Part shown: in pieces, positions 20,940-36,195 of the stretch
How the letters are laid out: each line of letters starts with the position of its first letter
Position numbering within the stretch: the first letter of the stretch is position 1
NCBI GenBank assembly: GCA_964401855.1
Contig: CAYOAF010000099.1
Location: 1 to 36,195 of the forward strand
Source: an uncultured Dehalococcoidia bacterium
GTDB taxonomy: Bacteria > Chloroflexota > Dehalococcoidia > Lucifugimonadales > UBA3495
Reading direction: 5' to 3'
DNA: 36,195 nucleotides
Program-made: the position numbers and the translations under genes
The notes under the pieces: model-generated
What the model was told of the DNA's origin: nothing
The model's database searches: none
The model's input: only the letters and a program-made list of their open reading frames with translations

Positions 20940-22760
20940 ATGGCAACGCCCCAGCGCCGGACCGTCTTTGTCTGTCAAGGAACGGGGTGTGTTTCCGCCC
21001 GGTCGCCGGACATCCAGGCGGCCCTCCAGGGCCGCATCGATGAATCGGGCCTGAAAGACTGGGTAGACGTGAAGCTCAGCGGTTGTCACGGTTTCTGCGA
21101 GCAGGGTCCCCTCATAGCCATAGAACCCGAGGGCGTTCTATACACCCGTGCCAAGAGTGACGATGCTCTGAGAGTCGTCACGGAACACTTGGAGAACGGG
21201 ACGGCCGTGAAGGGTCTTCTCTACCGGGACCTGCTGACCGGGGCGCCGGTTCCCCACTACGCGGACATCCCGTTCTACAGTAAGCAGACGCGGCTTGTCT
21301 TGCGTAATTGCGGTCATATCGACCCCACAAAACTGGACGACTACCTGGCCGTTGACGGTTACGGAGGTCTCAAAAAGGCGTTCGAGCGGGGTCCAGAGGG
21401 GATAGTCGAAGAAATCAAAAAGTCGGGCCTGAGAGGAAGGGGCGGCGCCGGTTTCCCCACCTGGCGAAAGTGGCAGTTCTGCAGAGACGCAAAAGGCGGC
21501 CGGAAGTTCCTCATATGCAACGCCGACGAGGGCGACCCGGGGGCTTTCATGAACCGGTCGCTTCTGGAGGGAGACCCCCATTCCCTCCTGGAGGGGATGC
21601 TCATCGCCGGGTATGCAATCGGCGCCCATCAAGGCTACATTTATTGTCGCGCGGAGTATCCGCTGGCCCTGGAGAGGCTGCGGATAGCCATGGAGCAGGC
21701 GGAGGGGCACGGGCTGATTGGCGACGACATTATGGGTTCGGGATTCAGCTTCCGCATCAAGGTTAGCCAGGGCGCGGGGGCCTTCGTCTGCGGGGAGGAG
21801 ACAGGGCTGATCCTTTCGATCGAGGGCGAGCGCGGAATGCCCCGTCCCCGGCCGCCTTTCCCCGCCGTGTCGGGCCTGATGGGGAAGCCGACGGTGGTCA
21901 ACAACGTGGAGAGCCTGGCGTCCGTGGCGCTGATCCTGCAAGACGGCGCCGAGCGGTTTGCTCAGTACGGCACCGAGACGAGCAAGGGCACCAAGACCTT
22001 CGCCCTGGTTGGCAAGGTAAAGCTTTCGGGCCTCGTCGAGGTGCCCCTGGGCATCACTTTGCGCGAGATAGTCTACGATATTGGGGGAGGGGTACTCGGA
22101 GACAAGCAACTGAAAGCCGTTCAGACCGGCGGCCCTTCGGGGGGCTGTATCCCAGCCAGCATGATCGATATACCGGTAGACTACGATTCCCTCACCGCGG
22201 CCGGCACCATCATGGGCTCCGGCGGCATGGTGGTGATGGATGAAGGCACCTGTATGGTCGACGTTGCCCGCTATTTCGTGGACTTCACCCAGAAGGAGTC
22301 ATGCGGCAAATGCGTGCCCTGCCGGCTTGGCACCAGGCAGATGCTGGACATTCTGGAAGACATAACCCAGGGGAAGGGCTCCCCGGAGGACATCGACCTG
22401 CTCGTGGAGATGGGCGAGGGGGTGAAAACCGGCTCCCTGTGTGGACTCGGGCAGACGGCGCCGAACCCCGTGCTCACCACCATCCGGTATTTCCGGGACG
22501 AGTATGAGGCACACATCAACGAAAAGCGCTGCCCGGCCAAGGTGTGCACCGCCCTCATCTCCTACCACATCACGGAAGCGTGCGTCGGTTGCCTGCTGTG
22601 CTTAAAGGCCTGCTCCTCCGAGGCGATAGTGGGTGAGTTCAAGAAGCTCCACGTCATCGACCAGTCCAAGTGCACCCAGTGCGGAAGCTGTTTTGACGTG
22701 TGCCCGCCCAAGGTCAATGCCGTGGAGATCCTCTCCGGTCAGTTGGCCGCGGTACAATAG
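20940..22760 (+). CDS. NuoF/HydB-like NAD(P)H-binding flavoprotein subunit with extra N-terminal [2Fe-2S] and C-terminal 2x[4Fe-4S] domains
   Basis: GLRGRGGAGFPTWRKW (FMN/NADH site); ESCGKCVPCRLG..SLCGLG ([4Fe-4S]). The N-terminal VCQGTGC...GCHGFCEQGP is a thioredoxin-like domain. The C-terminal CVGCLLCLKAC and CTQCGSCFDVCP are ferredoxin motifs. Confidence 0.9.
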   Translation: MATPQRRTVFVCQGTGCVSARSPDIQAALQGRIDESGLKDWVDVKLSGCHGFCEQGPLIAIEPEGVLYTRAKSDDALRVVTEHLENGTAVKGLLYRDLLTGAPVPHYADIPFYSKQTRLVLRNCGHIDPTKLDDYLAVDGYGGLKKAFERGPEGIVEEIKKSGLRGRGGAGFPTWRKWQFCRDAKGGRKFLICNADEGDPGAFMNRSLLEGDPHSLLEGMLIAGYAIGAHQGYIYCRAEYPLALERLRIAMEQAEGHGLIGDDIMGSGFSFRIKVSQGAGAFVCGEETGLILSIEGERGMPRPRPPFPAVSGLMGKPTVVNNVESLASVALILQDGAERFAQYGTETSKGTKTFALVGKVKLSGLVEVPLGITLREIVYDIGGGVLGDKQLKAVQTGGPSGGCIPASMIDIPVDYDSLTAAGTIMGSGGMVVMDEGTCMVDVARYFVDFTQKESCGKCVPCRLGTRQMLDILEDITQGKGSPEDIDLLVEMGEGVKTGSLCGLGQTAPNPVLTTIRYFRDEYEAHINEKRCPAKVCTALISYHITEACVGCLLCLKACSSEAIVGEFKKLHVIDQSKCTQCGSCFDVCPPKVNAVEILSGQLAAVQ

Positions 22761-22789
22761 ATTACCCAAGGGTCTGATGGAGGCGAAAA

Positions 22790-25564
22790 TTGATGGGCGA
22801 GGCCACTCTCACCATCGACGGACTGCAGGTCCCGGCATCCGAAGGCATGACCGTGATGGACGCGGCGCTCCAGAGCGGCATCTACATCCCCGGTCTCTGC
22901 CACCACCCGGACCTGAAGCCGGTCGGCGCGTGCCGGCTTTGCATGGTCGAGATCGAAGGAAGGGGACTGGTCGCCTCCTGCCTGGCCCCGGCCGAGCAGG
23001 GCCTTGTTGTCAACACGGTGAGCCCGGAGGCCGAGAGAACTCGTCGCGTCTCGGTGGAACTGCTGGTCGCGAATGACCGAGGAGAGTGCCTCACCTGCGC
23101 CAAGAACAACAGCTGCGGCCTCCAGGAGGTCGCTGCCTACATCGGCATCACGCCGGAGCGGATGGCCCGCTTGAGGAGTCCAACCGAGCCTCCCCCGGTT
23201 GACACATCCAATCCGTTCTTCGACTTCGACCCGGGCAAGTGCGTGCTTTGCGGTATCTGTGTCCGCACCTGTGACGAGATCGTCGGTGTCCACGCCATCG
23301 ACTACGCGTTCCGAGGGTACGACACCACCATCAGCGTCTTCGCCAACAAGCCCGTCATAGACTCCAGGTGCGTGTCCTGCGGGGAATGCGTGGTCCGGTG
23401 CCCGGTGGGGGCCCTGGTTCCCAAGGAGCACCGGCAACCCACCCGGGAGGTCAGCACCGTCTGCCCTTATTGCGGTGTCGGTTGCGGCATCTACCTGGGG
23501 GTCAGAGGCAACGAGGTCATCGCCTCCCGGGGCGACCCCGGCAACCGGTCCAGCCAGGGCCAGCTTTGCGTGAAAGGCCGCTACGGCTTCGGCTTCGTCA
23601 ACCATGAGGACAGGCTCACCACTCCCCTCATCCGGGTGGATGGAGAATTGAAGCCAGCCTCTTGGGACGAGGCGCTGGACTATGTGGCGGAGCGCCTGGT
23701 CCAGTACCGAGGCGACTCCTTTGCGTCGTTCTGCTCCGCCAAGACCACCAACGAGGACGCCTACATTCAGCAGAAGTTCGCCCGGCTGCTGATGCAGACC
23801 AACAACGTCGACCACTGCGCCCGGCTGTGTCACGCTCCTTCGGTCCTGGCGATGATGACAGCCCTGGGCAGCGGCGCTACTAGCAACTCGTACGTCGACT
23901 TCGAACAGGCCGGCTGTTTGATAGTCGTCGGCGCGGACCCAAACTCCAACCACCCTGTCGTTGCGGCCAGGATACAGCGAGCTGTGGCTGGGCGCGGCGT
24001 CAAGCTCATCGTAATCAACCCGCGCCGCGTCGATCTGTGCGACTACGCCGACCTGTGGCTGCGGCCGCGGCCCGGCACCGACGTCGCCCTGCTCAACGGG
24101 CTGGCGAAGGCCATCCTGGACGAGGGCCTGTTGGACCGGGAATTCGTGGCCAACCGCACCGAGGGCTTCGAAGAGTGGGCTGCGGTCGTCCACAAGTACA
24201 CCCTGGACCACGTTGAAGAGGTGACCGGTGTCTCCGCCGAAGACATCTGTCAGGCGGCGCGCATGTATGCTAACCTCCCCTTCGTAAGGGGGCGCGACGG
24301 TTCGTCTCTTCCCCCCTTTGATAAAGGGGGATCAGGGGGGATTTCCGGGGGCTCCTGCCTCATTTGGGGCATGGGGATCACCCAGCATGCCGCCGGCACG
24401 GCCAACGCCCATGGCCTGCTGAATCTGGCCCTGGTTTCCGGCCAGATCGGCAAACCCGGTTCCGGCGTCTCTCCGCTGCGGGGGCAGAACAACGTTCAGG
24501 GCTGCGGCGACGCGGGGTGCCTGCCCAACACCCTCCCCGGCTACCAGGCGATCAACGATGACAACGTCGCCGGATTCCAGGCAGCCTGGGGCGGCCATCC
24601 GCTGCCCAAAGAGCGCGGCTTGATGCTCACCGAGGCCGTGGAGGCGATGCCGGAGGGCCGCATCAAGGCCGTCTTCATAATGGGAGAGAACCCTCTCCTC
24701 AGCGAACCGGACCTGCACCACGCCGAAGAGGCCTTCCGGAGCCTGGAGTTCCTGGTGGTTCAGGACCTCTTCCTCCACGAGACCGCTCAGATCGCCGATG
24801 TTGTATTGCCGGCCACCTCCTTCGCCGAGAAAGACGGCACCTTCACCAACAGCGAGCGCCGCGTCCAGCGGGTCCGGAAGGCCATTCAGCCGCCAGGCCA
24901 GAGCCGCCCGGACTGGGAGATTGTCTGCGACCTGGGACGCCGCGTTTCGAAGCGGATGGGTCTGAGGCTGGAGGAGCAGTTCACGTTCGACAGCCCATCC
25001 CAGGTCTGGGACGAGATGGCCCGGCTGACCCCCTTCATCGGGGGGATCTCCTACGGCCGGCTGGAGGAGGGTGGGGTCCAGTGGCCTTGCCCCACGCCGG
25101 ACCACCCCGGCACGCGCTACCTGTACGCCGAAGGGTTTCCCCGGGGTCCGCGAGCCAAGTTCGTTGCCTTCGACCAAGGAAAGGCCGCTGAGGAGATGCC
25201 CAGCAAGCGGTACCCCTTCATCCTCAACACGGGCCGCGTCTTGTACCACTGGCACGGGGGCACCATGACCCGCAGGGTGGCCAAGCTGGTGGCCCGCTAT
25301 CCGGAGCTGCCGGTGGCCATCAATCCCGAGGACGGCCGAAAACACAACCTGGGCGACGGGCAGCCGGTCCGGGTTACCTCCCGCCGGGGCCAGCTCACCG
25401 GCAAAGCCCTGCTCACCGATGGTATGCGGGCGGGGGAGATTTTCATCCCCTTCGTGAAGCTGGAGGAGTCGGCGGCCAACTTCCTGACCAACTCGGTCTA
25501 CGACCCCAGCTCCAAGATCCCGGAATACAAGGTCTGCGCCGTCCGGTTGGAAGCCGTGGAGTAA
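22790..25564 (+). CDS. fdhA: Formate dehydrogenase catalytic (alpha) subunit, molybdo/tungstopterin, cysteine type, with NuoG-like N-terminal Fe-S domains
   Basis: N-terminal Fe-S motifs: CHHPDLKPVGACRLC, CLTCAKNNSC, CVLCGICVRTC, CVSCGECVVRCP. MopB cluster: CPYCGVGC. Active site NNVDHCARLCHAPS with Cys codon TGT at 23828-23830, where Sec enzymes have TGA. Also PLRGQNNVQG and a C-terminal MGD-binding barrel. The start is either TTG 22790 or ATG 22793, after GGAGG. Confidence 0.92.
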   Translation: MMGEATLTIDGLQVPASEGMTVMDAALQSGIYIPGLCHHPDLKPVGACRLCMVEIEGRGLVASCLAPAEQGLVVNTVSPEAERTRRVSVELLVANDRGECLTCAKNNSCGLQEVAAYIGITPERMARLRSPTEPPPVDTSNPFFDFDPGKCVLCGICVRTCDEIVGVHAIDYAFRGYDTTISVFANKPVIDSRCVSCGECVVRCPVGALVPKEHRQPTREVSTVCPYCGVGCGIYLGVRGNEVIASRGDPGNRSSQGQLCVKGRYGFGFVNHEDRLTTPLIRVDGELKPASWDEALDYVAERLVQYRGDSFASFCSAKTTNEDAYIQQKFARLLMQTNNVDHCARLCHAPSVLAMMTALGSGATSNSYVDFEQAGCLIVVGADPNSNHPVVAARIQRAVAGRGVKLIVINPRRVDLCDYADLWLRPRPGTDVALLNGLAKAILDEGLLDREFVANRTEGFEEWAAVVHKYTLDHVEEVTGVSAEDICQAARMYANLPFVRGRDGSSLPPFDKGGSGGISGGSCLIWGMGITQHAAGTANAHGLLNLALVSGQIGKPGSGVSPLRGQNNVQGCGDAGCLPNTLPGYQAINDDNVAGFQAAWGGHPLPKERGLMLTEAVEAMPEGRIKAVFIMGENPLLSEPDLHHAEEAFRSLEFLVVQDLFLHETAQIADVVLPATSFAEKDGTFTNSERRVQRVRKAIQPPGQSRPDWEIVCDLGRRVSKRMGLRLEEQFTFDSPSQVWDEMARLTPFIGGISYGRLEEGGVQWPCPTPDHPGTRYLYAEGFPRGPRAKFVAFDQGKAAEEMPSKRYPFILNTGRVLYHWHGGTMTRRVAKLVARYPELPVAINPEDGRKHNLGDGQPVRVTSRRGQLTGKALLTDGMRAGEIFIPFVKLEESAANFLTNSVYDPSSKIPEYKVCAVRLEAVE
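24275..24346 (+). repeat. 72-nt in-frame copy of the GC-rich hairpin repeat family inside fdhA (encodes LPFVRGRDGSSLPPFDKGGSGGIS)
   Basis: Contains CCCCTT-cgt-AAGGGG and CCCCCTTT-gat-AAAGGGGG hairpins. The 13-nt CCCCTTCGTAAGG is identical to 7874-7886, and AAGGGGGATCAGGGGGGATTT matches 16505-16524. Confidence 0.6.
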
Positions 25565-25606
25565 GGCCCGGTTCCTGAAGCCGGGCATCCCGAGCCGCCG
25601 CCATTC

Positions 25607-25635
25607 TTGACTGGGCCTATAAGCCGGGATAGACT
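25607..25635 (+). promoter_or_regulatory. Putative sigma-70-type promoter for the acyl-CoA dehydrogenase gene
   Basis: TTGACT (25607-25612), a 17-nt spacer, then TAGACT (25630-25635). This leaves a ~195-nt leader before GTG 25831. Confidence 0.4.
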
Positions 25636-25766
25636 AGGTTCGCTCCGGAGTCCCGTTCGCGCCAATAATGAGAAGACAACGGAGGCCGCCCATCGCATTG
25701 GCTGAAATGGGTGAGCCGCAATAGGTAACATCCAGAACAATCGGCCTCAACGCCGGAACCCGGAAA

Positions 25767-25811
25767 CTGACAGCTGCCAGCTGACCGCTGATGGCTGGAA
25801 GCTGACAGCTA
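25767..25811 (+). repeat. GCTGAC-type repeat / near-palindrome just upstream of the acyl-CoA dehydrogenase RBS (possible operator)
   Basis: CTGACAGCTGCCAGCTGACCGCTGATGGCTGGAAGCTGACAGCTA. The core GACAGCTG-C-CAGCTGAC is a near-palindrome. The 20-mer GCTGACCGCTGATGGCTGGA matches the minus strand of 28051-28070 at 17 of 20 positions. Confidence 0.45.
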
Positions 25812-25830
25812 AACGAAAAGGAGCCCCCCT

Positions 25831-26997
25831 GTGACCATGCCAACACCCGAGGAAGCCCGCGCCCAGATTGTCAGCATGGTTCGGGAGTTTGTCCGCCGCG
25901 ACGTGATGCCGTTGGCGGACAGCTTGGACCGTGAGGACGTGCTATCCCTGGAACTGGTGGACAAGATGAAGGAGCTGGGCCTCTTCGGCATCACGGTGCC
26001 TGAGGAGTACGGCGGATTGGGCCTCGACTACACCACCTTCGCCCTGATCTTTGAGGAGATCAGCAAGGGGTTTATGACCCTTACCGGGCCTCTTGGCACG
26101 CACCACATCCTGACCTATGTGCTGACCCAGTTCGGCACCGAGGATCAGAGACGGGAGTTCCTTCCCGATCTGGCCGCTGGGCGAAGGCGGGGCGGCCTGG
26201 CCCTCACCGAACCCGGCGGCGGCAGCGACGTGGCCAACCTTGAGACCACCGCCGTCAAGGACGGGGAAGAGTACGTCATCAACGGGTCGAAGATGTTTAT
26301 CACCAACGGCCGTTCCGGGGACACCTTCTGCCTGCTGGCCCGCACCGACCGGACACCGGGGTCGAAACACCGGGGCCTGAGTTGCTTCGTCATCGAAAAG
26401 GGTGGAGCGGGGTTCCGAGTGGGCCGGGACCTGGAAAAGCTGGGGTACCGGGGCCTGGACACCAGTGAGCTGATCTTCGAGGACTTCCGCGTTCCCATGG
26501 AGAACCTGGTCGGGGGAGAAGAGGGCCGCGGGTTCAGCCACGTGATGAGCGGGCTGGAGACCGGGCGTATCAACATAGCGGCCCGGGCGGTGGGCGTGGC
26601 CCAGGCGGCCCTTGAGGCCTCGATCCGCTACGCTCAGCAGAGGCACAGCATGGGCGTCCCCATCGCTCAGCACCAGGCCATTCAGTTGAAGCTGGCGGAC
26701 ATGGCCACCAAGATCCAGGCGGCGCGTCTGCTGACCTACGACGCCGCCGCCAAGATGGACCGGGGCGAGCGGCTCGATCTGGAGTCGGGCATGGCCAAGC
26801 TGTTCGCCAGCGAGACCTGCCAGGAAGTGGCCATGGATGCGATGCGAATCCACGGGGGTTACGGGTACATCAAGGAGTTTCCCGTGGAGCGCTACTACCG
26901 GGACGCCCCCCTGATGGTTATCGGGGAGGGCACCAACGAGATCATGCGCCTGGTCATCGCCCGTCAGCTACTCAAAAGGCCGGAGTACCAGATCTAG
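25831..26997 (+). CDS. Acyl-CoA dehydrogenase
   Basis: GTG start 7 nt after AAGGAG. Full-length ACAD pattern: LTEPGGGSD, FITNG, YAQQRHSMG, IHGGYGY..E.PVERYYRDA..MVIGEGTNEI. Confidence 0.9.
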   Translation: MTMPTPEEARAQIVSMVREFVRRDVMPLADSLDREDVLSLELVDKMKELGLFGITVPEEYGGLGLDYTTFALIFEEISKGFMTLTGPLGTHHILTYVLTQFGTEDQRREFLPDLAAGRRRGGLALTEPGGGSDVANLETTAVKDGEEYVINGSKMFITNGRSGDTFCLLARTDRTPGSKHRGLSCFVIEKGGAGFRVGRDLEKLGYRGLDTSELIFEDFRVPMENLVGGEEGRGFSHVMSGLETGRINIAARAVGVAQAALEASIRYAQQRHSMGVPIAQHQAIQLKLADMATKIQAARLLTYDAAAKMDRGERLDLESGMAKLFASETCQEVAMDAMRIHGGYGYIKEFPVERYYRDAPLMVIGEGTNEIMRLVIARQLLKRPEYQI

Positions 26998-27023
26998 TGC
27001 TTCGTCAACTTGTTTCTTGCATC

Positions 27024-27101
27024 ATGTCATTCTGAGGAGCGAAGCTACGTAGAACCTCACCGTGACAACGAGATTCTACGCTTTGTTCGGAATCTATCAT
27101 G
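27024..27101. repeat. Long imperfect palindromic element of the ATGTCATTCTGAG family
   Basis: The left arm is ATGTCATTCTGAGGAGCGAAGCTACGTAGAACCTC, the centre is ACCGTGACAAC, and the right arm is GAGATTCTACGCTTTGTTCGGAATCTATCATG. The first 13 nt are identical to 19915-19927. A CCCCGAT-tgc-ATCGGGG hairpin follows at 27102-27118. Confidence 0.5.
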
Positions 27102-27240
27102 CCCCGATTGCATCGGGGCGCCACGGCCCACGAGAATAGGGCGGCATGTTTCATCAGGGTCCGTGCGGAAGAGAGAGGAAGGGAGCCCCGGGGGGTATTG
27201 TCGGAGCAATGGCATGAGTTAGCAGCAAGTTGACTGAGTG

Positions 27241-28017
27241 CTAGCGCCCCTTCCACTGGGGCTTGCGCTTCTCGGCGAACGCCTTGGGCCCTTCCTTTGA
27301 GTCCTCCGTCTTCAGAAGATCGTCGTACATATGATACGTAAGGGCCGCGATGTCGTGGGTGGACATGTTGAGGCCCCGATAGGCCAGCTCCTTGAAGTAC
27401 TGCACCGCCAGAGGGGCGTTGCCGGCAATCTGCTGGGCAAAGGCCAGGGCCTCCGGCATCAGCTGGTCCGCAGGCACCACCTTGTTGACGAAACCCATGT
27501 CGTAGGCCCGCTGGGCCGTGATAGGCTGGGCCGTCAACACCAACTCCATAACCGCCGACAGGGGCATCATCTTGGACAGATAGGTGCCGAACGGGGCCAG
27601 GAGGCTCCACTTGGCCTCGCTGATGCCCATCTGGGCGTCCTCCGACGCGACGCGAAGATCACACATCTGGGCTATGGACCAGCCGCCGGCCAGGGCGTAG
27701 CCGTTGATGGCGGCGATGAGGGGCTTCCATGTCTGGGGCCACATGGAGCCGCCGTTCGGTGACATGCTGTCCGAGGCCCGCGCCTGGACCCCCTGGGCGT
27801 TGTCGGTCGCCCGCTCCTTCAGGTCCCGGCCCGCGCAGAAGGCCCGCCCAGCGCCGGTAACCACGGCCACGAAGGAGTCGGGGTCTCCGTCGAACCGGAC
27901 AATCGCGTCAGAAAAGTCCTCCCGGAACTGCCGGTTGATGGAGTTCAAGGCGGCGGGCCGGTTCATTGTGATGATGACTATGTGGTCCCGCTTCTCGTAA
28001 AGCACTGTATCGCCCAT
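27241..28017 (-). CDS. Enoyl-CoA hydratase/isomerase (crotonase) family protein
   Basis: IVIITMNRPAALNSI...VVTGAGRAFCAGRDLKE...AAINGYALAGG is the typical crotonase fold signature. Confidence 0.88.
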   Translation of the reverse strand: MGDTVLYEKRDHIVIITMNRPAALNSINRQFREDFSDAIVRFDGDPDSFVAVVTGAGRAFCAGRDLKERATDNAQGVQARASDSMSPNGGSMWPQTWKPLIAAINGYALAGGWSIAQMCDLRVASEDAQMGISEAKWSLLAPFGTYLSKMMPLSAVMELVLTAQPITAQRAYDMGFVNKVVPADQLMPEALAFAQQIAGNAPLAVQYFKELAYRGLNMSTHDIAALTYHMYDDLLKTEDSKEGPKAFAEKRKPQWKGR

Positions 28018-28050
28018 TCTGTTGCGCTCCTACTTCTGGTGAGTTTAGCG

Positions 28051-28086
28051 TTCAGCATTCAGCGGTCAGCTTGACTGCTGACCGCT
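28051..28086 (-). repeat. GCTGAC-type repeat with perfect 8-bp inverted repeat between the HIT gene and the enoyl-CoA hydratase gene (possible operator)
   Basis: CGGTCAGC (28063-28070), a 6-nt spacer, then GCTGACCG (28077-28084). Read on the minus strand, GCTGACCGCTGAATGCTGAA resembles 25780-25799. Confidence 0.45.
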
Positions 28087-28089
28087 TCC

Positions 28090-28500
28090 TCAGGCGTAAG
28101 GACCCAAGTGAATCCCGCCGATGACGTGAAGGTGGCTGTGGCTTTGGCTTTGCATACCGTCGTGGCCGAAGTTGGAAAGGACCCGAAACCCGCTGGGGGC
28201 GAACGTGCAGCCCATCTCCATCGCCACATCCCCCAGCCTGGGCATCAGATCGCTGCACCACATCTCCATCTGCCCCATGTGCTTCTTCGGCATCACCAAC
28301 AGCATCAGGGGCACCCAGGTCAGCTTGTTGACGATGACGATGATATCTTCGTCCAGGTACCGTACCTTGGCGGGCGAGCGCCCCGCGACGATTTCACAGA
28401 ATATACAGTAGGAAGAGCCGCTCAACGGTCGCCGCTCCGCATCGGATAGCTTGACCTCCACATACCTCGAGGGCCGCCTTCGCCAGCTCTCCGGGCTCAT
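28090..28500 (-). CDS. HIT (histidine triad) family nucleotide hydrolase/transferase
   Basis: Histidine triad HSHLHVIGG near the C-terminus, plus CIFCEIVAG near the N-terminus. I place the start at ATG 28500 (MSPESW...) because the upstream part of track ORF 28090..28641 is Gly/Ala/Pro-rich and contains a repeat element. Confidence 0.82.
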   Translation of the reverse strand: MSPESWRRRPSRYVEVKLSDAERRPLSGSSYCIFCEIVAGRSPAKVRYLDEDIIVIVNKLTWVPLMLLVMPKKHMGQMEMWCSDLMPRLGDVAMEMGCTFAPSGFRVLSNFGHDGMQSQSHSHLHVIGGIHLGPYA

Positions 28501-28637
28501 CCCGGTTACCCTCACCACCTTGTGAATATAAGGGCCGGTATACCCCTTGTCAATGCCGGAACCGGCTCCCGGCCCCGCTGGGTGAGGCGCACACCCGGAG
28601 GCAAGCCCGCCCGCCCGCCCGCCCTCCTCCCGGATAG

Positions 28638-28700
28638 CCACAGAGCCACCGAGAGCACAAAGGACAATTCAGGCCGCCCTGCGTCTCTGTGCCTCTGTGG
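28638..28700. repeat. Imperfect inverted repeat in the divergent HIT/mog intergenic region
   Basis: CCACAGAGCCACCGAGAG (28638-28655) pairs with CTCTGTGCCTCTGTGG (28685-28700) as 8 + 3 + 4 bp, with one mismatch and a 2-nt bulge. Confidence 0.4.
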
Positions 28701-28790
28701 CAAAACCTTGGGGGGCTTCCTCACAGGCCACTGTTCAGCGTAGGTTACCGAAGGCGGGGCTGCATGGTATCATGGCTTTCGGAGGCAACG

Positions 28791-29282
28791 ATGTTCGGAT
28801 TAGCCGTTTTGACCGTCAGCACCTCCGGCCACCAGGGTCTGCGCGAGGACACCAGCGGGCAGGCCATCCAGGAAATGCTGGAACCCCAGGGCTTCCAGGT
28901 GGTCCGCTACGAGGTTGTGCCTGATGACGGGGACTTCATCGCCCAGAAGCTGTCCCGGTGGGCCGATGCCCCCGACGTGGACTTGATCATCACCACCGGG
29001 GGCACCGGCCTGGGCCTCCGGGACGTTACACCCGAGGCCTGCCTTTCGATCCTCGACAAGGAAGTCCCTGGGCTGGCCGAGGCGATGCGGGCCAACACCC
29101 TCCAGTTCACCCCCATGGCCATGCTCAGCCGCTCCGTGGCCGGAATCCGGGGTAACACGCTGATCATTACCTTGCCGGGCAACCTCAGGGCTGTCCGCCA
29201 ATGCTTGGACGTGGTCAACCCCGTCCTCCCCCATGCCCTAGAGTTGCTCCGGAAAGAGACCGTTGACGAGCACCCGACCTGA
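28791..29282 (+). CDS. mog: Molybdopterin adenylyltransferase / molybdenum cofactor biosynthesis protein (MogA/MoaB family)
   Basis: ATG 28791, 5 nt after GGAGG; the track ORF starts earlier, at 28689. VLTVSTSG...DLIITTGGTGLGLRDVTPEA...AGIRGNTLIITLPG are MogA/MoaB signatures. Confidence 0.87.
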   Translation: MFGLAVLTVSTSGHQGLREDTSGQAIQEMLEPQGFQVVRYEVVPDDGDFIAQKLSRWADAPDVDLIITTGGTGLGLRDVTPEACLSILDKEVPGLAEAMRANTLQFTPMAMLSRSVAGIRGNTLIITLPGNLRAVRQCLDVVNPVLPHALELLRKETVDEHPT

Positions 29283-29516
29283 GAATACACCGGGCCGAGA
29301 ATCAGATACTAAATCAGTCGTCTGGGCGGTGTTTTCTGACGCACCCTCCGGCGGATTGGCGCACCGGACACTGGGGCCGCCTCCGTAGGAACCGGGGTTC
29401 CCGAGGAATCGCCGTGATGAAGCCCTGATTACGCCATAATAAGACCGAAACCGGCAACTCTTTCGGCGAGAGTCCGGTTTATTACCCGGCCTCTTGCATG
29501 TGCCGTTCAGATACCC

Positions 29517-29546
29517 TTGACACCGTCGTTTGGGCTTTGCTAGGAT
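29517..29546 (+). promoter_or_regulatory. Putative promoter of the hopanoid gene cluster
   Basis: Consensus TTGACA (29517-29522), an 18-nt spacer, then TAGGAT (29541-29546), ~110 nt upstream of the polyprenyl synthase start. Confidence 0.4.
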
Positions 29547-29654
29547 TCCAGGCATCGGCACACCAGGTATTTCGAGAGGCGGGGCTCCAGGTTTCATCCC
29601 TACGGATTCCGTTGTCCAACACGGTTGTTCAACATGGAAGTTAAAGGTCGCAGC

Positions 29655-30725
29655 ATGACCCAACATTCGAGCGCTAAAGCGAAGACCAGGCCGGAACTTC
29701 CGGCGATGTTTGCCCGTTACAAAGACCTGGTGGAACAAGAGCTGCAGAGGTCGGTGCCGGCTTCTGATAATGCCAAAGTTCACGTCTTGCTCCGGTATCA
29801 TCTGGGATGGGTGGACCGGCATGGGAAGCCGGCCGAGTCCCCCGCTTCCCAGGGCAAGGCATTGCGCCCTACCCTCTGCCTCTTCGCTTGTGAAGCCCTC
29901 TCGCAAGACACGGCCCGGGCCCAGCCGGGAGCCGCTGCCCTGGAGATCATCCACAATTTCTCCCTGGTCCACGACGACATCCAGGACCAGGACCTGGAAC
30001 GGCGCCACCAGCCGACCGTCTGGAGCTTGTGGGGGATACCCATGGCGCTGGTGGCGGGCAACGCCATGCAGTCCGTTGGGGACCTGGCCCTGCTCGAGGC
30101 CGCCTGGCGGAACGTGCCGCCGGAGACGGTCTTGAAGGTCTCGGAGATACTGACATCCAGCTACCTTGAGATGATCGAAGGCCAATGCCAGGACATGGAC
30201 TTCGAGTCCAGATCGGACATTACCACCGAAGAATATCTCAGGATGATCGCGCTTAAGACCGGGGCCTTGATTCGCAGCGGCCTCGAGATGGGGGCCCTGC
30301 TAGGCGGCGGTGATTCCACGGCGGTTGAGGCTTTCCGCCAGTTTGGGAGCTACCTGGGCCGGGCGTTTCAAATCCGGGACGACTTCCTGGGCATCTGGGG
30401 AGATGAGGCCACTATCGGGAAGGCCGGAGGCAACGACATCCGCCGCCGGAAAAAGTCTTTCCCGGTGGTCTGCGCCTTCAGCCAAGCCCGCGGCCCGGCG
30501 CGCGATGACCTCATGCGGGTCTACCAACAGAAGGAGCTGGACGAAGCAGACGTTCTCCGAGTGCTGGCTGTGCTGGAGGAGGTCGGCGCCCAAGAGCAGT
30601 CCCAGCGGTTGACCGAGGCCAGTGCCGCCGCAGCCTTTCAGGCCCTGGACCCGGTCCCTCTGCCGCCCTGGGCCAGGACCGAGGCAGAGGAGCTGGTTGA
30701 CTACCTGGCCTGGAGACAGTATTGA
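29655..30725 (+). CDS. Polyprenyl diphosphate synthase (trans-isoprenyl diphosphate synthase family; FPP/GGPP synthase-like, hopanoid-cluster associated)
   Basis: First Asp-rich motif LVHDDIQDQD and second motif FQIRDDFLGIWGD. Start uncertain: TTG 29625, ATG 29634 or ATG 29655. The last has an AAAGG 7 nt upstream. Confidence 0.87.
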   Translation: MTQHSSAKAKTRPELPAMFARYKDLVEQELQRSVPASDNAKVHVLLRYHLGWVDRHGKPAESPASQGKALRPTLCLFACEALSQDTARAQPGAAALEIIHNFSLVHDDIQDQDLERRHQPTVWSLWGIPMALVAGNAMQSVGDLALLEAAWRNVPPETVLKVSEILTSSYLEMIEGQCQDMDFESRSDITTEEYLRMIALKTGALIRSGLEMGALLGGGDSTAVEAFRQFGSYLGRAFQIRDDFLGIWGDEATIGKAGGNDIRRRKKSFPVVCAFSQARGPARDDLMRVYQQKELDEADVLRVLAVLEEVGAQEQSQRLTEASAAAAFQALDPVPLPPWARTEAEELVDYLAWRQY

Positions 30726-30744
30726 CCCTTGAGGTTTGGGCCAA

Positions 30745-31785
30745 ATGATTCGCGCCAAGCGGCCCGCCGAACTTGCCGTTCGGTTGGGTTTCTACATATT
30801 GAAGAACCGATTGCGGGGCCGGAAGCGGTTTCCGCTGGTGACCATGCTGGAACCCTTGGAGATGTGCAACCTGGCCTGTGGCGGGTGCGGGCGCATCCGG
30901 GAGTACAGACCGGTGATCGAAAGAATGATGCCGGTGGATGTGGCCCTGGAGGCCGTGAAGGAGTCGGGGGCGCCCATCGTCTCCATTGCAGGTGGAGAGC
31001 CCACCATCCATCCCAATATTGATGAGATTATCAACCGGCTGGTGGCGCGAAAACACTTCGTCTACTGCTGCACCAACGGGCTGCTGCTGGAGCGGATGCT
31101 TGATCAGGTGCCTGCTTCCAAGTACCTCTGTTGGGTCGTCCACCTGGACGGGATGGAGCGGAAGCATGACGAGTCGGTGGCCCGAGCCGGGGTCTTCAAT
31201 ACGGCTGTTCGGGGCATGGAGGCGGCGCTGGACCGGGGATACCGGGTCTGCACCAACACCACCGTGTTCCGCAACAGCGACGCCGAGGACTTGTGGGAGA
31301 TGTTCCGGATGGTGGGCGGCATGGGCGTCGAAGGCTCCATGATTTCTCCGGGGTACGAGTTCCCGGACGCGTCGGTCCGGTACCTATTCCTGACCCGGAG
31401 GGAATCCCAGACCACATTTAGGAAGCTGTTGGACCCAGCTCGTACCGGGGGCATGCGTTTCTACAACAACCCGCTGTATTTGAACTTTCTGCGCGGGGAA
31501 AGGGACTACCAGTGCGCCGCCTGGTCCAGTCCGACCTATACCACAATGGGGTGGCGCAAACCCTGCTATCCACTGGCCGACGAGCACACCCAACAGGTCA
31601 ACGAGCTGTACGAGGGCCCACTGTGGGACCGCTACGGGGTGGGCAAAGACCCTCGATGCGCCAACTGCATGATGCATTGCGGATTCGAATCGGCTACCAT
31701 CTTCCAGGCCGTCACTACTCCCAGGGATTGGGCAACGCTGATCACATCTGGTGCCGCCGGCGAGACCGGCGTCACCGCGGCGTGA
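30745..31785 (+). CDS. hpnH: Adenosylhopane synthase (hopanoid-associated radical SAM protein)
   Basis: RFPLVTMLEPLEMCNLACGGCGRIREY (CxxxCxxC radical SAM cluster), a C-terminal Cys-rich DPRCANCMMHCGFE, and hopanoid gene context. ATG 30745 lies 10 nt after GAGG. Confidence 0.88.
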   Translation: MIRAKRPAELAVRLGFYILKNRLRGRKRFPLVTMLEPLEMCNLACGGCGRIREYRPVIERMMPVDVALEAVKESGAPIVSIAGGEPTIHPNIDEIINRLVARKHFVYCCTNGLLLERMLDQVPASKYLCWVVHLDGMERKHDESVARAGVFNTAVRGMEAALDRGYRVCTNTTVFRNSDAEDLWEMFRMVGGMGVEGSMISPGYEFPDASVRYLFLTRRESQTTFRKLLDPARTGGMRFYNNPLYLNFLRGERDYQCAAWSSPTYTTMGWRKPCYPLADEHTQQVNELYEGPLWDRYGVGKDPRCANCMMHCGFESATIFQAVTTPRDWATLITSGAAGETGVTAA

Positions 31786-31800
31786 CCTGCAGGAGGTCCG

Positions 31801-32634
31801 GTGCTAACTATCGTCGCCGCCATGGAGCAGGAGTTGGCCCGCCTCCGAGAGGTACTGGGGGGACGAACCGGTGCGGTGGGGCGCGAGGTGCTTGCGACGG
31901 CGGACCTCCACGTCATCGGCGTCGGAAGGTCCGCGGCGGGGACCGCGGTATGTTCGCTGATCGAGCGCCAGGGGATGGTCGGCGATGGTTCCCCCTCCCC
32001 GGAAGGGTTGTTGCTCTTGGGGTTCGCCGGCGGGGTTGCCCCGGCTCTCGAGGCTGGAACCCTGGTCCTGTCCTCCCGTTACTACCGGCAAGAACCGGCC
32101 TGTTCCCCCAATTCTACAGAGGAAAGGGCCGGGGATTACCTGGCTCCCGACCCGGAAATGTTGAGGCAGGGGATCCAAGCCGCCACCGCCGCCGGCCAAA
32201 GGTGGGCCAAGGCAGATTCCTTGACAGTGGACCACCTGGTGGCGACCCTCGAAGCCAAGGAGGCTATTCGCCTCCGGTACCCCGTTGGCATTGTGGAAAT
32301 GGAAGACTACTGGGTCGCGGCGGCGGCGCGGAAAGCGGGAGTGCCTTTCCTTTCGGCCAGGGTGGTCCTGGACGCGGCGGATCACCCCTTGCCCGGTTAC
32401 CTCATGGGCCTGAGCCGCTCCCGGTTCAGGGCCGCCGTAACCGTCGCGGCCATGCCCTGGCGGATTCCCGCCTTGCTGGGGTTGGCCCGCCGGCTCCCGC
32501 TGGCCCAGAAAGCCCTAACCGGCTTCGCTACCGCCTTTCTCGGGCAATTGGCCGGCGCTGAGCCGGCCCGGCCACGATTGGAGCCGCCCTCCTCCGCAAT
32601 CCCAGCCGGCCCCGGCGGGAGCTTGCATGGATGA
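31801..32634 (+). CDS. hpnG: Hopanoid-associated phosphorylase/nucleosidase (PNP/UDP family, adenosylhopane nucleosidase)
   Basis: PNP_UDP-type pattern: GVGRSAAG..., LLGFAGG..P.L..G, VEMEDYWVAAAARKAGVPFLSARVVLD. Sits between hpnH and hpnA. The stop overlaps the hpnA start (ATGA). Confidence 0.78.
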   Translation: MLTIVAAMEQELARLREVLGGRTGAVGREVLATADLHVIGVGRSAAGTAVCSLIERQGMVGDGSPSPEGLLLLGFAGGVAPALEAGTLVLSSRYYRQEPACSPNSTEERAGDYLAPDPEMLRQGIQAATAAGQRWAKADSLTVDHLVATLEAKEAIRLRYPVGIVEMEDYWVAAAARKAGVPFLSARVVLDAADHPLPGYLMGLSRSRFRAAVTVAAMPWRIPALLGLARRLPLAQKALTGFATAFLGQLAGAEPARPRLEPPSSAIPAGPGGSLHG

Positions 32635-33647
32635 GAGTCCTGGTTACAGGGGCCACCGGGTTCATTGGGGGCAATCTGGCGAGGACGCTTCGGCAGCGTG
32701 GCTACGATGTTAGCGCGCTGGTCCGGCCGGGAAGCAACACCTTAACAATCGACGGCGCCGGGGTAGAGCAAATACCTGGGGACATTCTGGACCGGGAATC
32801 GGTGGACCGGGCCCTACGCGGATGCGAGGGGGTGTTTCACTGTGCGGCGGCGTACACCTTTTGGTCGCCGGACCCGGACCTGGTGTACCGGACCAACGTT
32901 GGCGGCACGGCCAACGTCTTGGAAGCGGCCCGACAGGCCGGGGTTTCGAGGGTGGTTTACACCAGTACTGTGTCCACCGTTGGGCTGACTGCCGGTGGGA
33001 TGGGGACCGAAGAGACCCTCATGGACCCCAGCCATCTGGTGGGTAACTACAAGAAGTCTAAATACCGGGCGGAATGCCTGGCGTTGACCATGGCTTCGGA
33101 GGGTTTGCCCGTGGTGGTGGTCAATCCCACCACCCCGGTTGGTCCATGGGACGTCAAGCCGACACCCACCGGGAGGATGGTGCTGGACTTCCTGAGGGGA
33201 CGCATCCCGGTATACTTGGAAACGGGCATGAACCTGGTCGACGTGGAGGACGTGGCTGCCGGGCACATCCTGGCCATGGAAAAAGGAAGGCCGGGACAGC
33301 GATATCTTCTGGGCAATCGAAACCTGACGCTCAAAGCGATATTTGCCATGCTCCAAGAAGCCACCAGCCGCCGGGCGCCCCGGTGGCGCGCTCCTTTCTG
33401 GATGGCCATGGGAGCCGGGTATCTAGACCAGTTGGTGGAAGGTAGACTGCTCGGGCGGGAGCCGCGAATACCCTTGGAAGGGCTGAAGGTGGCGAAAACT
33501 CCAATGTATGTGAATTGCCAGAAAGCGGTCATCGAGCTGGGACAGCCTCAGGGCCCCGTGGAAGCTGCCATCGGGAAGTCAGTGAAGTGGTTCATGGAAT
33601 ACGGGTATACCCGGAACGGAAGGAGGACACGAAAGGCAGGGAGTTAG
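32631..33647 (+). CDS. hpnA: Hopanoid-associated NAD-dependent sugar epimerase/dehydratase family protein
   Basis: N-terminal Rossmann motif MRVLVTGATGFIGGNL. YKKSKYRAE corresponds to the SDR YxxxK catalytic motif. Located immediately upstream of shc. Confidence 0.85.
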   Translation: MRVLVTGATGFIGGNLARTLRQRGYDVSALVRPGSNTLTIDGAGVEQIPGDILDRESVDRALRGCEGVFHCAAAYTFWSPDPDLVYRTNVGGTANVLEAARQAGVSRVVYTSTVSTVGLTAGGMGTEETLMDPSHLVGNYKKSKYRAECLALTMASEGLPVVVVNPTTPVGPWDVKPTPTGRMVLDFLRGRIPVYLETGMNLVDVEDVAAGHILAMEKGRPGQRYLLGNRNLTLKAIFAMLQEATSRRAPRWRAPFWMAMGAGYLDQLVEGRLLGREPRIPLEGLKVAKTPMYVNCQKAVIELGQPQGPVEAAIGKSVKWFMEYGYTRNGRRTRKAGS

Positions 33648-33761
33648 CTTTTGCTTGCCTTGATGCCCTTCCGCCTACCAAGGGGGCTCCCCTTGGCGGG
33701 CGGGCAATCGGCGAGGGCTGAGACCCATGGCATTGGGTTCTGGCGTGAAAAGAAACAGGTA

Positions 33762-36195
33762 ATGTCCAGTCAGACAAGCACATCGGAAACACCGGCCAGA
33801 GAGGCGGTACATGAGGCCGTCCGGCGCATCCAGGACTATTTTCGCCGGACCCAGTACTTGGACGGCTACTGGTGTGGCGAGTTGGAAACCAACGCCACCA
33901 TGGAGGCCGAATACTTGATGCTGGGCTATTTCCTGGGCCGGCAGGACCAGGAGCGCTGGCGTAAGGTCACCAACTACATCTTGAGCAAACAGCGGGAGGA
34001 CGGCTCCTGGGGCCAGTACTACCAGGCTCCCGGAGACCTGAGTACTTCGGTGGAATGCTACTTCGCCTTGAAGCTGGCTGGTTACTCTTCGGATGCAGAG
34101 CCCCTGCGCCGGGCCCGGCGGTTTATCCTGTCTCGCGGGGGCGTGCCCAAGGTGCGCGTGTTCACCAAGATCTGGCTGGCCCTGTTTGGTCAGTGGGACT
34201 GGCGGGGCACGCCCAATATGCCTCCCGAAATGATCTTTCTGCCCTCCTGGGTTCCCTTCAACCTATACGAGTTCGCCAGTTGGGCCAGGGCCACCATGGT
34301 TCCCATGCTCATCATCCTGACTCACCGGCCCAGTTGCTCCGTGCCCGAGTCGGCTCGCATCGACGAGCTTTACCACCAGCCCCGGAAGGAGACCGATTAC
34401 TCGCTTCCAAAGCCCAAGAACCGCTTGGGATGGGCCTGGGTGCTGCACTGCCTGGACCGGGCCGCCGGTCTGTACCGGAAGCTGCCGATGCACCCCTTCC
34501 GGGGATGGGCAGAGCGAAGGATCGTCGACTGGATATTGCGTCATCAGGAGGTAGACGGTTGCTGGGGTGGTATCCAGCCCCCCTGGGTCTACTCGCTCAT
34601 CGCGCTGCACCACCTGGGGTTTCCTTCCGATCACCCGGCGATGGAGAAGGGGTATGCCGGATTTGAGGGATATGCCATCGAGGACGAAGACACCTGCACG
34701 GTTCAAGCCTGCATGTCCCCGGTTTGGGATACCTGTCTGGCCCAGCGTGCTCTGCTGGAATCCGGGGTAGCCGAGGACGACCCCATGGTGCGCAGGTCTA
34801 CCCGCTGGCTGTTGGGCCAGCAGATCCTGAACGCTGGTGATTGGCAGGTCCGGGCCAAGAATACCCAGCCCGGCGGCTGGGCTTTCGAGTTCCACAATGA
34901 CCAGTACCCGGACATCGACGATGCGTCGGAAGTGATCATGGCCCTGGCCTCGGCCAGGCTCGACCCTGAGGCGGAGCACCTCCGTGAGGAGGCCATCGGC
35001 CGCGGGGTTGAGTGGTTGCTGGCGTTGCAATCTAAGAACGGCGGCTGGGCCGCCTTTGACAAGGACAACGGCCGCAAGCACCTGACCATGCTTCCTTTTT
35101 CCGACTTCGGAGAAACGCTGGACCCACCCAGCGCGGATGTTACCGCTCACCTGGTGGAGATGTTCGGCAGGCTGGGCTACACCTGGCAATTTCCGGCCTT
35201 GCGCCGGGCTTACACCTATTTGCGGCGGGAGCAGGAGGGGGACGGGTCCTGGTTCGGGCGTTGGGGCGTCAACCACGTCTACGGGACCGGGGCGGTGCTG
35301 CCGGCACTGGCGGCGATCGGTGAAAACATGGACCAACCCTACATCCGTCGGGCCGTGAACTGGTTGCTGGCTCACCAGAACGGCGATGGTGGCTGGGGAG
35401 AAAGCTGCGGTTCCTACGTGGACCCGGCGCTTCGAGGGGTGGGGGCCAGCACGGCCTCCCAGACCGCCTGGGCCTTGATGGCGTTGCTGGCCGCGGGGGA
35501 GGAAGCACACCCGGCGACCCACCGGGGAATCCGCTACTTGCTGGACACCCAGACCGATAATGGCTCCTGGGACGAACCCTATTTCACCGGCACCGGGTTC
35601 CCCGGTTATGGCGTGGGAGAGAGGGTGGAAACCCTGCCAAAACCGGGAGAACAGGGCCGCCAGGGCCTGGATATGCCGGCCGGATTCATGATCAACTACC
35701 ACCTCTACCGGAACACTTGGCCCTTGATGGCCATGGGGCGGTACGCCAGGCTTCTCGACGCAAAGCGGGGCGCCCAGAAAATCACCAGGCTCTTTGAGAC
35801 CCAAGAGGCATTTTCATCCGCAGGGAGACAGGAAGGATCAGGAAAGAAAATGAATAGCAAGTCTTTTTGCCTCCAGTTGAACACCCAAAGAGCACCGGAT
35901 TTCATTGATATCACCGAGTGGGTTTGTAAGTGCGTGGCCAAATCCAAGGTCGGCAACGGCTTCGCGGTAGTCTACTCCAAACACACTACCGCCGCGGTGA
36001 GAATCAATGAAAACGAGCCTCTGTTGCTCCAGGATATGGCAAAATTCTTGGAAAAGATGTCGCCCCGCAACGGCGGATACGACCACAACGACTTCAGCAT
36101 TCGCACCGTCAACATGAGTTCAGATGAGTCACCCAACGGCCATGCCCACTTGCAACACCTGCTGTTGGGTACCAGCGAGACCGTGCCCGTGATCG
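33762..36195 (+). CDS. shc: Squalene-hopene cyclase; the reading frame has no stop and continues in frame into a YjbQ/UPF0047 module (3' end outside the window)
   Basis: Hand translation from ATG 33762 (codons at positions divisible by 3) is open to base 36195 with no stop, so it is absent from the ORF track. SHC hallmarks: the DxDD motif as DIDD (34911-34922), QW-type repeats (QREDGSWG, QEGDGSWFGRWG, QNGDGGWGE, QTDNGSWDE), GGWAFEF, and the C-terminal TGTGFP...FMINYHLYRNTWPLMAMGRY. Confidence 0.9.
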   Translation, partial: MSSQTSTSETPAREAVHEAVRRIQDYFRRTQYLDGYWCGELETNATMEAEYLMLGYFLGRQDQERWRKVTNYILSKQREDGSWGQYYQAPGDLSTSVECYFALKLAGYSSDAEPLRRARRFILSRGGVPKVRVFTKIWLALFGQWDWRGTPNMPPEMIFLPSWVPFNLYEFASWARATMVPMLIILTHRPSCSVPESARIDELYHQPRKETDYSLPKPKNRLGWAWVLHCLDRAAGLYRKLPMHPFRGWAERRIVDWILRHQEVDGCWGGIQPPWVYSLIALHHLGFPSDHPAMEKGYAGFEGYAIEDEDTCTVQACMSPVWDTCLAQRALLESGVAEDDPMVRRSTRWLLGQQILNAGDWQVRAKNTQPGGWAFEFHNDQYPDIDDASEVIMALASARLDPEAEHLREEAIGRGVEWLLALQSKNGGWAAFDKDNGRKHLTMLPFSDFGETLDPPSADVTAHLVEMFGRLGYTWQFPALRRAYTYLRREQEGDGSWFGRWGVNHVYGTGAVLPALAAIGENMDQPYIRRAVNWLLAHQNGDGGWGESCGSYVDPALRGVGASTASQTAWALMALLAAGEEAHPATHRGIRYLLDTQTDNGSWDEPYFTGTGFPGYGVGERVETLPKPGEQGRQGLDMPAGFMINYHLYRNTWPLMAMGRYARLLDAKRGAQKITRLFETQEAFSSAGRQEGSGKKMNSKSFCLQLNTQRAPDFIDITEWVCKCVAKSKVGNGFAVVYSKHTTAAVRINENEPLLLQDMAKFLEKMSPRNGGYDHNDFSIRTVNMSSDESPNGHAHLQHLLLGTSETVPVI
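35850..36195 (+). other. YjbQ/UPF0047 (secondary thiamine-phosphate synthase-like) module, N-terminal ~115 aa, in the same frame as shc; may also be translated on its own from ATG 35850
   Basis: MNSKSFCLQLNTQRAPDFIDITEWV...GFAVVYSKHTTAAVRINENEPLLLQDMAKFLEKMSP..YDHND...NGHAHLQHLLLGTSETVPV matches the UPF0047 pattern (HTTA..INEN.....D......P....Y.H......N..AH....LLG.S...P). A purine-rich SD-like AGGAAGGATCAGGAAAG precedes the ATG. GC drops visibly from ~35790. Confidence 0.75.

Follow-up and report, generated by a model that had tools for sequence, protein, structure and literature searches.

A squalene-hopene cyclase reading frame continuing into a YjbQ/UPF0047 module in a clade of Dehalococcoidia

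Structure of the shc-yjbQ reading frame

The contig CAYOAF010000099.1 of an uncultured Dehalococcoidia bacterium (GenBank assembly GCA_964401855.1) was analysed over positions 1 to 36,195 of its forward strand, and this whole stretch of 36,195 nucleotides (nt) is called the window. Its 3′ part carries, among hopanoid (hpn) genes, the gene shc for a squalene-hopene cyclase (SHC), whose reading frame continues in phase into a module of the YjbQ/UPF0047 family. In-frame translation of the window showed that ATG 33762 opens 811 sense codons, stop-free to 36194. The true stop, sought by extending the contig, was found in the JGI contig L005, which reaches beyond the window end: the complete open reading frame (ORF) would have 843 codons (~95 kDa), end in ...VMVQVVGE* and close after 147 YjbQ codons, the window edge falling 32 codons short of it. 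The frame consists of an SHC of amino acids (aa) 1-665, a linker of 31 codons and a YjbQ/UPF0047 module from ATG 35850, as follows.

33762..35756, + strand: SHC proper, aa 1-665, ending ...NYHLYRNTWPLMAMGRYARLL; TIGR01507, SQHop_cyclase_N/_C, DIDD and QW-like motifs
35757..35849, + strand: linker DAKRGAQKITRLFETQEAFSSAGRQEGSGKK, 31 codons, read as the former shc tail plus intergenic spacer, with no shc-frame stop
35823..35839, + strand: invariant block GGGAGACAGGAAGGATC within the linker, putative Shine-Dalgarno (SD) region for independent yjbQ initiation, with AGGGAGA at its 5′ edge
35850..36195, + strand: yjbQ/UPF0047 module, 147 codons in full, of which 115 lie inside the window and the remainder is cut by the window end

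A preliminary description of the same DNA had proposed the 811-codon open frame from ATG 33762, a complete SHC in residues 1 to about 665, some 30 linker codons after the GRY motif and a natural YjbQ N-terminus at ATG 35850. All four points were borne out. The linker counts 31 codons at 35757-35849, and in 83 related loci the homologue of ATG 35850 is the start codon of a free-standing YjbQ of 147 aa.

The SHC part matched the TIGR01507 hopene_cyclase equivalog model over aa 6-615 with 792.8 bits (cut-off 431.1), and the Pfam domains SQHop_cyclase_N (424 bits) and SQHop_cyclase_C (467 bits) together span aa 21-615, where the SHC profiles cease aligning. A DIDD (DxDD) motif lies at aa 384, eight QW-like motifs follow the pattern Q-x(2-5)-G-x-W, and the SHC ends ...MAMGRYARLL, the GRY motif region finishing at 35756. 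In its N and C alpha/alpha-toroid domains, DxDD motif, QW repeats and hpn cluster context the protein resembles bacterial SHCs (HpnF/Shc, e.g. that of Alicyclobacillus acidocaldarius), from which it differs by a loop, GYGVGERVETLPKPGEQGRQGLDMPAGF, inserted ahead of the last NYHLYR...GRY segment and by the added 31-aa unconstrained linker and 147-aa UPF0047 domain, giving 843 aa against about 630-690. The SHC part is thus predicted to be an ordinary HpnF-type cyclase, and its hpn gene context supports an activity converting squalene to hopene or diplopterol.

The YjbQ part was recognised at aa 704-810 by PF01894 (74.3 bits, cut-off 27) and TIGR00149 (79.8 bits, cut-off 67.75) despite its truncation by the window, and its complete end is visible in L005, L089 and L090. 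The module in the window is 93% identical to the stand-alone 147-aa protein P0001, which matches PDB 1xbf_A at E = 1.3e-21 over residues 9-145 and PDB 1vmh, 2p6c and 1ve0 likewise at ~1e-21. It keeps the family motifs HTTAA...NEN and NGHAH, and shares with the solved structures (PDB 1xbf, 1vmh, 2p6c, 1ve0, 1vmj and 1vph) the HTTA...NEN and H-x-H motifs and the natural N-terminal Met. Unlike these, members of the Dehalococcoidia subfamily carry an insertion of 13 aa, DFSIRTVNMSSDE, ahead of NGHAH and reach 147 aa against about 130-140. By these profile and structure matches it is predicted to be an ordinary UPF0047 domain with a subfamily-specific 13-aa insertion, which differs from the rest of the family in being fused behind an SHC and set in a hopanoid operon.

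The junction in independent assemblies

L005 is 99.76% identical to the window at 22631-36195, and the alignment is gapless over 13.6 kb including the junction. An exact-sequence look-up placed the SHCs of L005 and of the ENA contig L001 in one 90%-identity cluster of 28 members, which holds 843-aa fusions from metagenome-assembled genomes of JGI, ENA and NCBI origin (MDP6227569.1, MDP7084791.1, MDP7511563.1, HJN85721.1 and MDP7201662.1), named in NCBI only "squalene--hopene cyclase", together with 828-aa calls (alternative start) and junction-spanning fragments. The exact 843-aa protein P0124 recurs across many samples, on at least 24 contigs (34 index blocks), and the uninterrupted fusion ORF was also found in L088-L102 and in the proteins P0123, P0124, P0130 and P0134. 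Gene calls differ in length, giving an SHC of 717, 797, 828 or 843 aa and, where it is called separately, a yjbQ of 147 aa.

A word-indexed homologue search with a junction query returned only split proteins among its best 120 matches, and the fused cluster was found via cluster membership; since that cluster exists in the same collection, its absence from the best 120 is not evidence of absence. A pattern scan of metagenome DNA yielded one locus, L088, an in-frame allele within the L001 species and too few for allele frequencies.

These assemblies bear directly on whether a missed stop or an indel, introduced by sequencing or assembly, makes two ordinary genes seem fused. In favour of such an artefact, the window ends within the fusion ORF, and a 7-nt indel of the contigs L001-L003 (see below) sits exactly in the linker. 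The identical gapless junction in the independent assembly L005, together with in-frame junctions in five lineages on dozens of contigs that different projects produced with different assemblers, nevertheless effectively refutes this explanation.

As a separate observation, the SHC of L005 departs from that of the window by five differences, four of which fall within 36 nt (35624-35659) in the loop insertion, which reads ETLPKPGEQGRQGLD in the window and ETLPRPGERGHQGLD in L005, L006 and the L001 lineage, with three amino acids changed (K>R, Q>R and R>H). Such clustering may stem from recombination over a short tract or from relaxation of the loop.

Separate shc and yjbQ genes in relatives

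Relatives were surveyed with one genome per GTDB species, which gave 80 Dehalococcoidia, SAR202 and Chloroflexota loci (L008-L087). Every one has an shc with its own stop, placed 1-183 nt before yjbQ or in an out-of-frame overlap of 4, 11, 26 or 59 nt, and then a yjbQ of 147 aa that starts from a separate ATG; the two genes are in phase in about 26 of the 80 loci, each with a stop before yjbQ. Past the GRY motif, SHC has a tail of 1-65 aa (median 24.5) that is hypervariable and unalignable between species. yjbQ stands between shc and hpnC/D in 80/80 loci, a share biased upward because the query that ranked the loci took in both YjbQ and the end of SHC, and the order HpnH-HpnG-HpnA-SHC-YjbQ-HpnC/D is kept in 78. 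Of the stop or frame change in relatives that the preliminary description had taken as the mark of two ordinary adjacent genes, the stop is thus present in these 80 species and a 7-nt frame change in L001-L003, a minority allele in a sister species, but neither marks the window lineage, where the in-frame allele is dominant.

GC content falls from ~0.62-0.68 before 35750 to ~0.51-0.55 after it. That the sequence becomes AT-richer past the junction had been observed correctly, and had been explained by a junction with DNA of foreign origin, or with a separate evolutionary history, at which shc lost its stop. According to this explanation yjbQ came by horizontal transfer or rearrangement, the insertion deleting the stop of shc, and the drop of ~10 points across the junction is what speaks for it. 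However, yjbQ has a lower GC content than shc in 80/80 species, by 5.7 points on average, with a mean difference of ~0 in GC at third codon positions (GC3), and the drop is accordingly attributed to the amino-acid composition of yjbQ rather than to a foreign origin. The unshifted GC3 and the conserved place of yjbQ between shc and hpnC/D lead us to reject a foreign-DNA junction as highly improbable, and the junction showed no sign of a repeat or a mobile element other than a 7-nt tandem unit.

A probable single origin of the fusion, and its reversal

Five distinct fused lineages were recognised (window/L005, L102, L100/L101, L089 and L090-L099). Their linker is always 93 nt long, gapless and stop-free in the shc/yjbQ frame (frame 0) only. 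A neighbour-joining tree built on YjbQ and the end of SHC unites the fused lineages and L001 in one clade and places the unfused L004 as its sister; a single clade with an unfused sister indicates that the SHC-YjbQ fusion probably arose once. The stop-loss mutation itself is not reconstructible, since the spacers and tails of L004 and the other outgroups are unalignable with the linker.

Nested within the fused clade, the three ENA contigs L001-L003 have AGGGAGA duplicated in tandem along the 5′ margin of the SD block (L001:~5975-5990, corresponding to window 35822-35828). The site is polymorphic within one species, L001-L003 differing from L088 and L090-L099, and L088 is 99.76% identical to L001, the sole gap being the 7-nt AGGGAGA copy. 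By this comparison, the duplication has re-split shc and yjbQ in one sub-population, the fused allele being found on at least 24 contigs and the unfused one on 3. Phase variation via the 7-nt repeat was considered and set aside, one versus two heptamer copies not being a typical contingency tract.

Selection on the domains, the linker and the ribosome-binding region

The ratio of non-synonymous to synonymous change (omega) was compared between the window and the L088/L001 lineage, which are separated by a synonymous divergence (dS) of about 0.5. It amounts to 0.12 for SHC and 0.08 for YjbQ, with mismatches strongly biased to third positions in both, showing that both domains are under strong purifying selection after fusion. 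The linker has an omega of about 1.8 and mismatches spread evenly over the codon positions (8/10/7), which together argue for no amino-acid constraint on it; over the five lineages 40 of its 93 sites vary (codon positions 11/14/15).

Within this variable linker the 17-nt block at 35823..35839 is invariant in all five lineages, third codon positions included (permutation p = 0.00085), which points to constraint at the nucleotide level, of the kind expected for a ribosome-binding site. The SD-like sequence previously pointed out before ATG 35850 gains support from this block. The candidate SD of yjbQ was read as GGGAGACAGGAAGG, a purine-rich string, GCAGGGAGACAGGAAGGATCAGGAAAGAAA, lies directly 5′ of ATG 35850, and similar purine-rich SD-like motifs occur upstream of the homologous ATG in most relatives. 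As the old ribosome-binding site and ATG are under nucleotide-level selection, free YjbQ is most likely still made, by internal initiation, beside the fusion.

A proposed read-through fusion with internal initiation

One uninterrupted ORF thus joins two conserved domains. It recurs reproducibly, its carriers are monophyletic, and its parts stem from neighbouring genes of an operon. We interpret SHC-YjbQ, with a probability of about 0.72, as a real, heritable and near-neutral read-through gene fusion beside which free YjbQ is probably still produced. In SAR202-like Dehalococcoidia, shc and yjbQ are co-oriented neighbours within a single hopanoid operon (polyprenyl synthase-hpnH-hpnG-hpnA-shc-yjbQ-hpnC/D), and the unconstrained SHC tail after GRY ends at a stop whose position differs among species. 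Under the proposed mechanism, no shc-frame stop would have remained before yjbQ in the ancestor of the marine clade that carries the fusion, with the two genes in phase. Ribosomes finishing SHC would then continue via 31 former-spacer codons into yjbQ, giving the 843-aa, ~95-kDa polypeptide, and the retained SD and ATG would drive internal initiation, giving a free YjbQ of 147 aa and 16.5 kDa. The preliminary description had presented a genuine fusion protein and a lost stop with independent internal initiation as alternatives; each of them stands, probably both at once, but the exclusive choice between them does not.

This history resembles other read-through 'Rosetta-stone' fusions of operon genes in that the components are separate in relatives, the linker is derived from the spacer and both domains are conserved. 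It differs from them in that the former ribosome-binding site is conserved inside the ORF and a natural 7-nt duplication allele reverses the fusion.

Several points weigh against the proposed interpretation, the upward bias of the synteny share among them. The fusion polypeptide and the internally initiated YjbQ are both predicted products. At ~12 nt, the spacing between SD core and ATG is on the long side. In a neutral star-tree simulation all five linkers remain stop-free with P = 0.10-0.15, so that maintenance of the frame is indistinguishable from chance by simulation, and the open frame could be selected or merely tolerated. In L001-L003 shc is out of phase, its 717-aa SHC ending 59 nt inside yjbQ, which is called separately. 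In L005 a CAA>TAA change (Q>stop; L005:13523-13525, window 36153-36155) lies inside the HLQHLLLG motif of YjbQ, and owing to it the gene call there consists of a 797-aa SHC and a 42-aa fragment; this nonsense codon could be a strain-level inactivation of yjbQ or a consensus error. With the frameshift of L001-L003 and the nonsense codon of L005, some strains evidently do without an intact fusion.

The L005 sequence also raises the question of whether yjbQ is turning into a pseudogene in this clade, the fused tail being non-functional baggage on SHC. Besides the nonsense codon, the yjbQ of L005 shows 35887 Q>L and 36123 D>N as two more non-synonymous changes, on a contig only 0.24% diverged overall, as would be expected of such decay. 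Yet the yjbQ omega of 0.08 between lineages, the intact 147-codon modules in all other fused lineages and the retained HTTAA...NEN and NGHAH motifs make decay very improbable.

Adaptive fusion deserves more weight. Tethering YjbQ to SHC could be selected, for membrane placement by the cyclase or for a fixed stoichiometry, and the open frame actively maintained. Consistent with this, frame 0 is the sole frame open in all five lineages, the linker has exactly 31 codons and no indels despite its 40 variable sites, the fused allele is far commoner (at least 24 contigs vs 3) and both domains are under strong purifying selection. The neutral simulation, however, reaches the same outcome at the probability given above, the genes stay separate in 80 other species, natural fusion-breaking variants exist, the linker is without sequence constraint, and the constrained SD and ATG of yjbQ imply that the free protein still matters. 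On balance we consider adaptive fusion unlikely, and the read-through fusion looks tolerated or near-neutral rather than demonstrably selected.

The hopanoid gene cluster and the place of yjbQ

Upstream of shc the window contains the following hpn cluster genes, and on the opposite strand one reading frame that is not a gene.

29625..30725, + strand: polyprenyl diphosphate synthase, first hpn cluster gene; NCBIfam polyprenyl and FPP/GGPP synthase families, PF00348 in L005, L089 and L090
30736..31785, + strand: hpnH, adenosyl-hopene transferase, radical SAM; TIGR03470, 409 bits vs cut-off 225
31801..32634, + strand: hpnG-like divergent PNP_UDP_1 phosphorylase/nucleosidase; TIGR03468, 61 bits, below the cut-off of 187; PF01048
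32631..33647, + strand: hpnA, hopanoid-associated sugar epimerase family; TIGR03466, 406 bits vs cut-off 368
34263..35804, - strand: spurious 513-aa antisense ORF, not a gene; no Pfam match, antisense to the strongly supported SHC

It had been remarked that the ORF list of the window shows only this 513-aa antisense ORF at shc; this is so, and the fusion frame is absent from the list because the list omits frames running off the window edge. After the fusion ORF, L005 carries a gene of the SQS_PSY (HpnC/D-type) family.

The neighbourhood of yjbQ was also checked for shc, and a locus selected on YjbQ similarity only holds the same hopanoid cluster in the same gene order. In two SHC representatives further removed, at 50% and 45% identity, yjbQ is not adjacent to shc; on the basis of only these two distant samples, the shc-yjbQ linkage seems specific to this Dehalococcoidia group. 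No paper that names YjbQ or UPF0047 alongside hopanoid or squalene turned up in a literature search, and among the papers found on SAR202 or Dehalococcoidia and hopanoids none describes this cluster. The earlier statement that no link between UPF0047 and hopanoid synthesis has been described accordingly stands for the literature, whereas the genomes show a strong conserved link.

To our knowledge, the sole activity reported for the YjbQ family is a weak, secondary thiamin-phosphate synthase activity, echoed in the NCBIfam name and without obvious hopanoid connection, and we know of several solved UPF0047/YjbQ structures and of no established primary function. We tentatively suggest, as a possibility of rather low probability, that the Dehalococcoidia YjbQ is an unrecognised component of the biosynthesis of hopanoids or squalene-derived lipids that works in physical proximity to SHC, acting for example on a diphosphate-bearing or a ribosyl/adenosyl-hopane intermediate. 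If this were true, SHC-YjbQ would be a true Rosetta-stone event and would provide the first physiological role for a universally distributed family of unknown function. YjbQ as a replacement of HpnE was considered and rejected: at least 12 loci carry, downstream of hpnC/D, the end of an amine-oxidase (HpnE-like) gene, detected by its C-terminus with a poor query (the P0258 N-terminal region).

The fusion mechanism, stop loss between operon neighbours, is ordinary. Taken by itself the fusion holds modest interest, and the more valuable lead is that yjbQ keeps its place in hopanoid operons. yjbQ belongs to the hopanoid operon of at least 80 species in an abundant marine and soil class, in one clade of which it is covalently joined to the cyclase, and this placement offers a testable guilt-by-association lead on YjbQ function and on missing or variant hopanoid steps in Chloroflexota. 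The locus is also a natural example of a spacer turned linker, of a ribosome-binding site persisting inside an ORF and of a 7-nt slippage allele undoing a fusion. For annotation, it shows the UPF0047 domain overlooked in the 843-aa proteins and the yjbQ gene overlooked in split-calling pipelines.

A search of SHC homologues for a C-terminal UPF0047 domain gave no other SHC-UPF0047 fusion among the best 150 representatives of 1.84 billion clusters. Other public SHC fusions are predicted architectures, namely SHC-DUF116 (P0141), SHC-GT28 (P0201), amine-oxidase-SHC (P0258) and SHC-LytB (P0275), and judging from them, stop-loss fusion of SHC with its cluster neighbours is probably a recurring kind of event. 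The N-terminus of P0258 resembles low-complexity, out-of-frame sequence.

Two further features of the cluster were observed. The gene at the hpnG position scores alike against futalosine hydrolase and methylthioadenosine nucleosidase models, and its start is called variously (195-279 aa). Downstream of yjbQ, the clade of the window and some relatives have a single SQS_PSY gene (291 aa), then an NAD-dependent epimerase/3beta-HSD-like gene and an IU_nuc_hydro nucleoside hydrolase, an arrangement read at L089/L090:8576-11563 and L103:7533-10458; hpnD and hpnC are both present in most other species.

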